From Methanomassiliicoccales archaeon (lineage in GTDB: Archaea; Thermoplasmatota; Thermoplasmata; Methanomassiliicoccales; UBA472): DNA of 55,384 bases. Where the stretch lies: contig JBFYNB010000002.1 in the NCBI GenBank assembly GCA_041304605.1, positions 1 to 55,384 of the forward strand, written 5' to 3'. The translations under genes were made by a program, and so were the position numbers. The notes under the pieces are model-generated. The model saw nothing but the letters and a program-made list of their open reading frames with translations, searched no databases and had not been told where the DNA came from. This document shows positions 31,855-33,467 of this stretch, in pieces (position 1 is the first letter of the stretch; every line of letters starts with the position of its first letter).

Positions 31855-31881
31855 TTCTGATTTTTCAGAATTTTCTTATAG
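31855..31881 (+). promoter_or_regulatory. Inverted repeat TTCTGA-TTTT-TCAGAA abutting a TATA-like TTTTCTTATAG, upstream of the AbrB-hgcAB operon
   Basis: The IR lies at 31855-31870. The TATA-like element at 31871-31881 is centred about 25 nt before the ATG at 31903, so the transcript is leaderless or near-leaderless. The position fits an operator overlapping the BRE/TATA. Confidence 0.4.
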
Positions 31882-31902
31882 TTTTGATGATATCCTAACA
31901 GC

Positions 31903-32172
31903 ATGCCTCGCCGCAAGGGAACCGCGGAAGCGGAATGCTGCACCGGAAAGCCCGAACCGCCCAAGTACGACGTGGAGGGAGTGGCCACGGTGGACGAGAG
32001 GGGGCAGATGGTCCTGCCCAAGGCCATACGGGACAAGGCCGGCATCCGTCCGGGGGACAAGCTGGCCATAGTCACCCTGGTCAGGGACGGGCGGGTTTGC
32101 TGCCTTCACCTATTCCGGACGGACGACCTGGCGAACGGGATCAAGGACATCCTGGAACCCAGGGGGGAATGA
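31903..32172 (+). CDS. AbrB/MazE/SpoVT-type small protein with two vicinal Cys-Cys pairs, first gene of the hgc operon
   Basis: 89 aa with the SpoVT-AbrB core VDERGQMVLPKAIRDKAGIRPGDKLAI. CC pairs occur at residues 12-13 (AECCTG, nt 31936-31941) and 66-67 (RVCCLH, nt 32098-32103). The stop lies 3 nt before the hgcA start. Confidence 0.75.
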   Translation: MPRRKGTAEAECCTGKPEPPKYDVEGVATVDERGQMVLPKAIRDKAGIRPGDKLAIVTLVRDGRVCCLHLFRTDDLANGIKDILEPRGE

Positions 32173-32175
32173 GCT

Positions 32176-33156
32176 TTGGAGGAAGGTTACGCCACGGAGA
32201 CCTTGGCCACCGTTCCTGAGCTGGGAGGCAAGGAACGCAACGATCACATCAAGGCCAGGATCGGGATCGACCGCATGGGGCACCGGGTACGGCCGGGACT
32301 GTACGCCCTGGGAACACCTGATCGTTCATCGATCGTTCTGGTCACCGCGAACTACTCCTTGAGCTTCGACGCCTTGCGGTCCTCGCTGCCGGGAAGAAGC
32401 GCCTGGATACTGGTGCTGGACACCAAGGGTATCAATGTCTGGTGCGCGGCCGGCAAGCGGACCTTCGGAACGGAGGAGCTGATCAAGGCGGTGCAGGCCA
32501 CGGACCTGGCATCGAAGGTGGATGGCCGCACGCTGATACTTCCTCAGCTGGCCGCACCGGGGGTCTCCGCCCACGAGGTCAGGAAGGGCAGCGGATTCAA
32601 GGTGGAGTACGGACCGGTGCGGGCGGAGGACCTGCCAACCTACCTGGGCGCGGGAGAGTGCACCGAAGAGATGCGCACCGTCCGCTTCAACCTGCGGGAC
32701 CGGATGGTGCTGGCCCCGGTGGAGATCAGGAACTACCGCTGGTGGATGCTCCTGCTGCTCATAGCCGCGGTGTTCGTACCCTTCTACGGGCCTCTGGCGC
32801 TGGCCATGACCCTAGGCGGGATATTCCTGTTCCCGGCGCTCCTGCCTTACTTGCCGGGCAAGGACCTGTCGCTGAAAGGTTTCATCCTTGGCGTGCTGCT
32901 GGTCACGCCGTTCGCCCTGTACCAGCTGCTGTTCTGGAACGGAACTTTCGTGATCGTGGCGGTGGCCGCGGAGTACCTGCTGATGGCGGCCTGGATCGGA
33001 TATCTTGGCCTGAACTTCACCGGCTCCACGACCTTCACCTCGCGCACCGGGGTGAGCCGCGAGATCTTCAGATACATACCCATCATGGCTGGCATGCTGG
33101 TGCTGGGAGCGGCCGCGGCATTTTTCTCTATAGTGCTCTACGCGGGGTGGTTGTGA
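32176..33156 (+). CDS. hgcA: Mercury methylation corrinoid protein HgcA
   Basis: The cap-helix signature GINVWCAAGKRTFGTEEL is present (NVWCAAGK = nt 32434-32457, Cys codon 32443-32445). It is preceded by PGLYALG..S.VLVTANY.LSFD.LR and followed by about 5 TM helices. A TTG start at 32176 is the only in-frame start upstream of the conserved N-terminal region. Confidence 0.9.
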   Translation: MEEGYATETLATVPELGGKERNDHIKARIGIDRMGHRVRPGLYALGTPDRSSIVLVTANYSLSFDALRSSLPGRSAWILVLDTKGINVWCAAGKRTFGTEELIKAVQATDLASKVDGRTLILPQLAAPGVSAHEVRKGSGFKVEYGPVRAEDLPTYLGAGECTEEMRTVRFNLRDRMVLAPVEIRNYRWWMLLLLIAAVFVPFYGPLALAMTLGGIFLFPALLPYLPGKDLSLKGFILGVLLVTPFALYQLLFWNGTFVIVAVAAEYLLMAAWIGYLGLNFTGSTTFTSRTGVSREIFRYIPIMAGMLVLGAAAAFFSIVLYAGWL

Positions 33157-33467
33157 TGGAGATCGGAATGCTGGATATGCAAACACCGGAGAAGGGCAAG
33201 GTCATCAACACCTTGGTGTTCCATCCTGGCAGGTGCGTTAATTGCGGAATGTGCTTGAAGGTCTGTCCGCACCGGGTGTTCGCCCCCGGCGAGAAGAGGG
33301 TGCGGCTGGCCAGAGCGGAAGAGTGCATGGAGTGCGGAGCTTGCCAATTGAACTGCCCCGAGCAAGCGATAGAGGTGGACAGCGGAGTGGGCTGCGCCTC
33401 GGCCATGATAATGGCCGCCCTGAAAGGCAAGGACGAGGTGGAGTGCGGAGAGGATTGCTGCCGATGA
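33156..33467 (+). CDS. hgcB: Mercury methylation 2[4Fe-4S] ferredoxin HgcB
   Basis: The ATG overlaps the hgcA stop (TGATG). The 103-aa product has CVNCGMCLKVCP and CMECGACQLNCP, an extra Cys in GCASAM, and a C-terminal vicinal pair (..EDCCR). The upstream part of track ORF 32442-33467 is an out-of-frame overlap with hgcA. Confidence 0.88.
   Translation: MEIGMLDMQTPEKGKVINTLVFHPGRCVNCGMCLKVCPHRVFAPGEKRVRLARAEECMECGACQLNCPEQAIEVDSGVGCASAMIMAALKGKDEVECGEDCCR

Follow-up and report, generated by a model that had tools for sequence, protein, structure and literature searches.

What does a small AbrB-type gene do at the head of a mercury-methylation locus? The question is raised by a 55,384-nucleotide stretch of DNA (positions 1–55,384 of contig JBFYNB010000002.1, assembly GCA_041304605.1; hereafter the window) from a Methanomassiliicoccales archaeon, in which such a gene directly precedes hgcA and hgcB. 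The locus is almost certainly a chromosomal hgcC-hgcA-hgcB mercury-methylation operon, and a comparison of sequences suggests that the product of its first gene, HgcC, is likely to be an autoregulatory repressor of hgcCAB, perhaps one that senses a thiophilic metal(loid). We favour a regulator over a subunit of the methylation machinery because the protein has a DNA-binding fold, a conserved operator lies upstream of its gene, and members of the same family also precede arsM, the gene for arsenite methyltransferase.

All three genes lie on the forward strand. The first, hgcC (31903–32172; 89 aa, ATG start), encodes an AbrB/SpoVT-fold protein matching NF040962 and PF04014; hgcA (32176–33156; 326 aa, TTG start) encodes the corrinoid protein (NF040863) and hgcB (33156–33467; 103 aa, ATG start) a ferredoxin with two [4Fe-4S] clusters (NF040864). 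This tightly packed layout with an upstream AbrB-type gene had been described in a first-pass annotation of the window, whose open reading frame (ORF) coordinates and junctions are correct to the base. The hgcC stop codon (TGA, 32170–32172) is followed after three nucleotides (gct) by the TTG at 32176, and hgcA and hgcB share one nucleotide, their stop and start codons overlapping in the TGATG at 33154–33158. In seven related Methanomassiliicoccales loci the hgcC-hgcA gap measures 2–5 nt and the hgcA/hgcB overlap is always TGATG or TAATG. Two Shine-Dalgarno-like elements can be read from the forward strand: AGGGGGG (32161–32167), within the 3′ end of hgcC and 8 nt ahead of the hgcA TTG, and GGGGTGGT (33144–33151), within the 3′ end of hgcA and 4 nt ahead of the hgcB ATG. 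Relatives also have a G-rich run at the position of the former; the run before hgcB is identical in three close relatives, and three more distant ones have a similar sequence there. That hgcA starts at the TTG is supported by relatives, in which a start codon stands at the aligned position (ATG in L081, L082 and L084, TTG in L086 and GTG in L087), and by the close HgcA homologues, which are 326 aa in length and have the N-terminus MEEGYA in common.

Such short junctions support co-transcription and coupled translation of the three genes; they do not establish stoichiometry. The claim of the first-pass annotation that the upstream gene is expressed stoichiometrically with hgcAB thus goes beyond what the junctions can give, which is coupling only, and the fold of the protein, its candidate operator and the arsM-linked part of its family favour a regulator.

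The three-gene arrangement itself is not new. It is covered by the NCBIfam equivalog NF040962 ("HgcAB-associated protein HgcC", 'near_HgcAB') and by a published report, in which 8 of 31 confirmed methylators, six of them archaeal, had a gene annotated as prlF/mazE/abrB immediately before hgcA, which was proposed to be a putative archaeal regulator (Zhang et al. 2023, PMC10349881). HgcC of the window belongs to the same family, and its gene likewise stands immediately before hgcA in an archaeon that is a likely methylator. Both the name HgcC and that report tie the family to hgcAB only, whereas in the metagenome sample described below its members stand at least as often before arsM. Our search of the literature on HgcC, hgcAB and arsM together with AbrB-type proteins returned no description of an operator, of conserved cysteines or of a link to arsM; the HgcC gene was mentioned only in PMC10349881, from which the word 'cysteine' is absent. 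An apparent 'MazE' match in a paper on arsenic methylators was discarded, as it stemmed from 'Methanosarcina mazei'.

HgcC and its candidate operator

HgcC scores 98.7 bits against NF040962 (cut-off 70) and also matches TIGR01439 and PF04014 (AbrB/MazE/SpoVT). The latter is its only Pfam match, and no winged helix-turn-helix domain (PF01022) is present. Profile searches matched it to SpoVT, AbrB and Sso7c4-type structures, and the top Foldseek matches were SpoVT, AbrB-N and MazE, all of them swapped-hairpin DNA binders. In the single-chain AlphaFold2 model (mean predicted local distance difference test score 76.8; about 90 over residues 31–70) residues 1–20 form a low-confidence and probably disordered tail, which is followed by the AbrB-type strands and helix, a hairpin (54–61/64–72) and an extra C-terminal helix (73–84). 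Taken together, the profiles and the model suggest that HgcC is a dimer-forming DNA-binding protein of the AbrB/SpoVT fold. Its domain fold and sequence signature are those of the AbrB/SpoVT/MazE/MraZ superfamily; what sets HgcC apart is the invariant CC of the last strand, together with the Cys-rich tail and the short C-terminal helix. Cysteine-based ligand sensing is not known from these relatives.

The family comprises about 335 representatives (50%-identity clusters) at E 1e-10 or better. Residues D31, R33, G34, P39, K40, R43, G51 and D52 are invariant in alignments A1 and A5, as are Cys66 and Cys67 in the last strand; this core CC is found in 107 of 108 locus-encoded proteins. Nearly every member, across diverse representatives, has one or more Cys in its N-terminal tail. 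In the common arrangement a CC immediately precedes strand 1 ("CCKVE"), and some members have as many as three or four CC pairs; in the clade of the window the tail pair is Cys12-Cys13, ten residues further from strand 1 than in the "CCKVE" arrangement.

Upstream of hgcC, the 92-bp spacer that separates it from a divergent GNAT gene contains a perfect palindrome, TTCTGATTTTTCAGAA (31855–31870), of the form TTCTGA-TTTT-TCAGAA, with two CTGA/TCAG cores 8 nt apart. We regard it as the candidate HgcC operator. It is the sole match in the window, against 0.01 expected by chance. Position 31855 had been given by the first-pass annotation as the start of the locus; this base is the first of the palindrome, and no gene starts there. 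When eight loci were aligned, the palindrome and an adjoining TATA-like TC(TT/AA)ATA were invariant, and the rest of the spacer could not be aligned in the three most distant loci. The TATA-like box of the window, TCTTATAG (31873–31880, forward strand), is kept in alignment A4 and reads TCAAATA(G/T) in more distant relatives; its putative function follows from the general layout of archaeal promoters. With its centre about 26 nt ahead of the hgcC ATG, the box implies a leaderless transcript, and the right arm of the palindrome occupies about −38 to −33, the position of the B recognition element (BRE) of the hgcC promoter. A scan of 31200–34000 for sigma-70 promoters and intrinsic terminators found none, as is to be expected because the host is an archaeon; the promoter was read from the comparative alignment.

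The motif recurs well beyond this clade. TTCTGA-N4-TCAGAA occurs in 12 copies in 668 kb of loci, all within 300 nt upstream of hgcC, and its carriers include Methanosarcinales, Methanoperedens and another metagenome-assembled genome (MAG) of the Methanobacteriota. The relaxed pattern TCWGA-N4-TCWGA was found 26 times upstream of hgcC (22 of 29 loci) versus once in the remaining ∼659 kb. Strict regular-expression searches miss L016, L020, L032 and L038, where the cores have diverged or are otherwise spaced. Counting single CTGA/TCAG cores across 102 family loci gave 2.7 per 100 nt in the region −140 to −10 versus 0.8 elsewhere, with at least two cores in 100 of these loci and at least three in 80 (versus 9% of AT-rich control windows). 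Distances between cores peak almost only at 8–10, 17–19 and 26–28 nt; those of the control are flat. This phasing by 9 bp resembles the way in which MraZ-type proteins recognise short cores repeated at roughly one helical turn. Bacterial cores lie on or after the −10 box of clear TTGACA promoters and archaeal ones abut the TATA box, as do the four cores of Methanomassiliicoccus luminyensis and the three of Methanocella. A phased core pair upstream of hgcA was present in only 5 of 56 loci without HgcC (290-nt windows), which is the chance level, versus 16 of 20 loci with HgcC (130-nt windows). The motif thus travels with HgcC and not with hgcA, since upstream of hgcA it falls to chance level where HgcC is absent.

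HgcC homologues upstream of arsM

Among 80 species-level hgcA loci, 21 have HgcC upstream on the same strand, and 78 have hgcB downstream of hgcA. Most of the loci with HgcC are archaeal; the bacterial ones come from Syntrophobacteria, Syntrophales, Geothermincolia, Anoxymicrobiaceae and a deltaproteobacterium. In other lineages the genes hgcC and hgcA can be separated by 200–390 nt. A hidden gene in these gaps was considered and rejected, as they correspond to Cys-rich N-terminal extensions of HgcA, with the exception of one locus, L029, where the gap contains arsM.

A different picture of the family emerged from metagenomes. The sample consisted of the best 80 of the first 600 pattern matches to the HgcC profile, 69 of which had enough downstream sequence; the gene after HgcC was hgcA in 24 of these 69 and an arsM-type gene of about 280 aa in 41. 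The products of the latter genes score 320–361 bits against the arsenite methyltransferase model NF008823 (cut-off 263), and the proteins encoded upstream of them score 120–133 bits on the HgcC model, above HgcC of the window itself. What follows arsM in most arsM-linked loci is a gene on the opposite strand, so that the regulator and arsM form a two-gene unit. Among annotated examples, a Chloroflexi MAG encodes a protein named "HgcAB-associated protein" by NCBI, with an ArsM-type methyltransferase gene 2 nt later and hgcA missing from the surrounding 4 kb, and a Dehalococcoidia chromosome has a like pair of genes. In loci of this kind (L171:4001–5162 and L172:4001–5143) the two genes are 2–22 nt apart, hgcA is lacking over 4 kb, and NCBI calls the first product an 'HgcAB-associated protein' or, generically, an AbrB protein. 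Association with hgcAB neighbourhoods alone therefore holds for the protein of the window and not for its family, 41 of the 69 assessable metagenome loci having arsM instead.

The two targets meet in a Ca. Methanoperedens sp. (JAPMTS010000003.1; L029:2661–5252), where co-oriented hgcC (2721–2993), arsM (3008–3820), hgcA (3866–4969) and hgcB (4971–5252) sit behind one TTCTGAATTATCAGAA palindrome. Arsenite and mercury methylation genes thus appear to be under one promoter in this organism.

In a poorly resolved neighbour-joining tree (73 columns), hgcA-linked and arsM-linked proteins cluster, with 9 label changes versus a permutation mean of 30.7 and a minimum of 22. The two kinds interleave in the mainly bacterial part of the tree, and a division into two clean orthologous clades was therefore rejected. 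HgcC of the window falls in a purely hgcA-linked Methanomassiliicoccales clade.

Methylation genes, host and genomic surroundings

The identities of HgcA and HgcB were checked with profile models, and both proteins exceed the curated NCBIfam cut-offs. HgcA scores 385.6 bits against NF040863 (cut-off 275), 202.1 bits against the model for fused HgcAB-like proteins, which is below its cut-off of 285, and 63.8 bits against that for the ACDS gamma subunit, the corrinoid subunit of acetyl-CoA synthase (cut-off 306). The HgcA model hence far outscores that of the CFeSP type (CdhD/AcsC), which had been suggested as an outgroup. The cap helix and multi-helix membrane domain seen at first pass are both present. 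Residues 85–99 read GINVWCAAGKRTFGT and include the cap-helix motif NVWCAAGK (residues 87–94), invariant across 24 aligned HgcA homologues, and Kyte-Doolittle windows of at least 1.6 span approximately residues 189–326, read as about five C-terminal helices. Directly after the motif, residue 95 (32458–32460) is Arg (GKRTFGT), common only to the closest relative, P0123; 22 of the 24 aligned proteins have Gly here (GKGTFGT). HgcB scores 110.7 bits against NF040864 (cut-off 99) and has all the expected hallmarks, namely two CX2CX2CX3CP motifs (CVNCGMCLKVCP from residue 27 and CMECGACQLNCP from residue 57), a central Cys80 and the C-terminal pair Cys101-Cys102.

The locus therefore encodes the same pair as elsewhere, with a corrinoid cap helix and membrane domain in one protein followed by a ferredoxin with two [4Fe-4S] clusters and a C-terminal Cys pair. 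This pair is reportedly the mercury-methylation system of Parks et al. 2013 (equivalogs NF040863 and NF040864), and the first-pass annotation was right to call it established knowledge. Unlike HgcA of Methanomicrobiales and some bacteria, that of the window lacks an N-terminal Cys-rich extension. In many HgcA proteins of those groups the N-terminus is prolonged by a stretch rich in CC pairs (as in GCCEGP...SCCAP...DCCQP...GCCTP), which resembles the HgcC tail; examples are P0173, P0235, P0233, L055:3626–3986, L004:3752–3983, L016, L111, L124 and L149.

The closest named relatives of the locus are Methanomassiliicoccales MAGs, with 92% identity in HgcC and 86% in HgcA. Seven related loci have a gene order in common: aldo-keto reductase, NYN, (DUF6958), GNAT, the divergent hgcC-hgcA-hgcB, a convergent seven-transmembrane (7TM) histidine kinase and a transporter of the major facilitator superfamily. 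As their HgcC proteins are 65–91% identical to that of the window and the flanking genes are the same, the locus is inherited vertically within this clade, and the horizontal-transfer-like distribution suggested at first pass finds no support at this scale. The accompanying observation that no mobile-element or mer genes are nearby stands: Pfam scans of 38 window ORFs, from a list of 46 of which seven were left out (14535–15578, 26527–28923, 37568–38360, 52297–55369), found no transposase, integrase or mer domains. The window also encodes an Ech/Mbh-type hydrogenase and an HdrD-like protein, consistent with Methanomassiliicoccales. The same hgcC-hgcA-hgcB layout is found in Methanomassiliicoccus luminyensis B10, which in culture converted more than 10% of added Hg to methylmercury (PMC5893877). 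By this analogy the host is likely to be a methylmercury producer, as the first-pass annotation had proposed, since it has the same layout as an organism that methylates Hg in culture.

Several neighbouring genes deserve mention. The histidine kinase (HisKA_7TM, 33475–35148, reverse strand) is convergent with the operon and ends 8 nt past hgcB. Its position is kept in most related Methanomassiliicoccales loci (it is split in L087 and absent in L088), and no response regulator was seen adjoining it. The DUF6958 ORF (31008–31457, reverse strand) measures 149 aa from the first ATG and is called as 93 aa in relatives; its true start is probably near 31289, the long form overlapping the GNAT gene. 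Further from the operon, a Staygreen-family protein (PF12638; 18000–18491, forward strand), better known from plant chlorophyll breakdown, is unusual for a methanogen, and so are two DOMON-domain proteins (12017–14362, forward strand), one of which includes a fused cytochrome b561 domain. On the reverse strand at 275–8751 lie two very large ORFs of 1269 and 1534 aa, whose only Pfam matches are fibronectin type III repeats close to the C-termini; they probably encode surface proteins.

A proposed mechanism and its alternatives

According to the model that we propose, transcription from the TATA box, some 26 nt before the hgcC start codon, would give a leaderless message with all three genes. 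A HgcC dimer would bind the palindrome at 31855–31870, the right arm of which coincides with the BRE beside the TATA box; in this position the dimer would keep TFB/TBP off the promoter and thereby repress the operon to which hgcC belongs. That HgcC is a DNA-binding regulator acting at the palindrome seems distinctly likely from the sequence comparisons. The core pair Cys66-Cys67 and the Cys pair of the tail may form a thiolate site, for which As(III), Hg(II) or a methylated arsenical are candidate ligands. Ligand binding would release HgcC from the DNA and thereby induce hgcAB, following the logic of ArsR repressors on a different fold. That the cysteines sense a metal(loid) as the signal is a suggestion we hold with slightly less than even confidence. 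As in characterised methylators, HgcA, the membrane-anchored corrinoid protein, would then transfer a methyl group to Hg(II), and the HgcB ferredoxin would re-reduce the corrinoid and may pass Hg via its C-terminal Cys pair. In general terms, HgcC would control whichever metal(loid) methylation gene comes after it.

Vicinal Cys pairs are used as metal(loid) ligands by other proteins. ArsR repressors evolved As(III) sites at least three times, and two of these sites use vicinal Cys pairs; a two-Cys vicinal ArsR site is selective for methylarsenite. MerA and MerT bind Hg(II) through vicinal Cys pairs. A tentative proposal goes further: HgcC would stand for a class of thiol-based metal(loid) sensors not yet described, built on the AbrB swapped hairpin and convergent in function with ArsR. 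Such a sensor would sit on CTGA cores phased by 9 bp over the core promoter until As(III), methyl-As(III) or Hg(II) released it via its Cys pairs, and its target would be arsM or hgcAB, or both in Methanoperedens.

A counterpart is known in Pseudodesulfovibrio mercurii ND132, where the ArsR-type repressor ArsR2 is co-transcribed with hgcAB and responds to arsenic and S-adenosylhomocysteine (Gionfriddo et al., 10.1101/2022.10.17.512643). Like hgcC, the arsR2 gene is a small regulator gene directly upstream of hgcAB, and the two share a link to arsenic, the ArsR family also controlling ars genes and the HgcC family also preceding arsM. Their folds are unrelated, however, a winged helix-turn-helix in one case and an AbrB swapped hairpin in the other; we infer a functional resemblance and not homology. 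The role of ArsR2 is experimentally supported, whereas that of HgcC is read from sequence comparison. The levels of hgcAB transcripts predict methylation poorly (10.1101/2022.10.17.512643).

How well do other explanations account for these observations? HgcC might be, as the first-pass annotation implies, a stoichiometric accessory subunit of HgcAB, or a Hg(II) chaperone, its Cys pairs capturing Hg(II) and passing it to the C-terminal Cys pair of HgcB, with translational coupling equalising the amounts of the proteins. The gaps of 2–5 nt and the 1-nt overlap are indeed kept in the clade, vicinal Cys pairs are found in both HgcC and HgcB, and some HgcA proteins have similar CC-rich N-terminal tails. 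Yet HgcC-family proteins scoring 120–133 bits precede arsM with no hgcA nearby, and HgcC does not seem to be needed for the HgcAB enzyme, because about three quarters of species-level hgcA loci are without it. The fold and the conserved basic residues (R33, K40 and R43) are moreover those of DNA binders, and a conserved phased DNA motif travels with hgcC, all of which makes a subunit or chaperone quite unlikely, although HgcC might conceivably act both as a regulator and as a partner of HgcAB. A repressor whose cysteines sense redox state or oxygen, by means of a disulfide or an Fe-S cluster, would limit HgcAB and anaerobic ArsM to reducing conditions. Such a sensor could use the four or more Cys per monomer at near-invariant positions. 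It would suit the carriers seen here, most of which are methanogens or MAGs from Chloroflexota and deltaproteobacterial/Syntrophales lineages; these are anaerobes, and the cofactors of HgcA and HgcB are oxygen-labile. We consider it unlikely, though still a serious variant of the regulator model: HgcC has no Fe-S motif spacing, vicinal Cys pairs recur as ligands of As(III)/methyl-As(III) and Hg(II) in ArsR variants, MerA and MerT, and both target types are metal(loid) methylation genes, which suggests a signal related to the substrate.

Doubt may also be cast on the site and not on the protein. In the clade of the window the palindrome lies in the 92-bp spacer common to the divergent GNAT gene, and it could be bound by another factor or be part of the GNAT promoter, HgcC acting elsewhere or not on DNA at all. 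This is very unlikely, because HgcC is the only gene common to all motif-carrying loci: M. luminyensis and Methanocella keep phased cores upstream of hgcC without a GNAT gene, all 38 scorable arsM-linked loci, which are also without it, have at least two cores, and the motif is no commoner than chance when HgcC is missing. Finally, hgcAB could merely adjoin a degenerate type II toxin-antitoxin module (MazE/PrlF), with the upstream gene encoding its antitoxin. The Pfam domain is named MazE_antitoxin, many homologues bear the JGI label 'antitoxin PrlF', and an annotation of this kind, derived from KEGG/Pfam labels, is discussed by Zhang et al. 2023 (PMC10349881). However, no toxin gene adjoins the upstream gene in any locus examined, the next gene being hgcA or arsM, and a toxin-antitoxin module was rejected on this ground. 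HgcC scores only 16.5 bits against the PrlF model (cut-off 125), the scanned ORFs offer no mobile context, and a genuine MazE-PIN pair in Methanocella sp. MCL-LM (L170:1479–2109) is a separate unit, so that an antitoxin is extremely improbable. That pair, about 900 nt upstream of a toxin-less hgcC-hgcA-hgcB, serves as a contrast case for a real AbrB-type antitoxin context.

Some points weigh against the repressor model itself. We infer the DNA binding of HgcC, the site bound, the sign of regulation and the ligand alike. The operator of the window has two cores only, where many relatives have three or four, and from its position between hgcC and the GNAT gene it could serve either within this clade. 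Adjacent cysteines in a strand face opposite sides, so Cys66-Cys67 may not jointly chelate one ion. The window encodes no arsM or other ars gene; a search for arsM or a second HgcC copy in the window found neither, the only match being a weak one to a generic methyltransferase (53205–53897). The 41:24 ratio of arsM to hgcA is drawn from the best 80 of the first 600 matches and represents no unbiased frequency, and such ratios are indicative only, since the sample is not unbiased and the tree short.

As a mercury-methylation locus, hgcCAB of the window is ordinary and adds one more Methanomassiliicoccales genome to the likely methylmercury producers. Its value lies in the upstream gene, for which the operator, the candidate sensing cysteines and the link to arsM turn a "putative regulator" into a concrete hypothesis and open the regulation of hgcAB, and through it the question of its native role, to direct tests. 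The name "HgcAB-associated protein" is misleading for a large part of the family when given to genes adjoining arsM, and could inflate genome-based counts of mercury-methylation neighbourhoods. The arsM link also provides independent support, from a second and unrelated regulator fold, for the connection between arsenic and mercury methylation proposed from the ArsR of Pseudodesulfovibrio. If HgcC is indeed a metal(loid) sensor, hgcAB would belong to a metalloid-methylation regulon, and methylmercury production by archaeal methylators would be switched on by arsenic or a similar thiophile.

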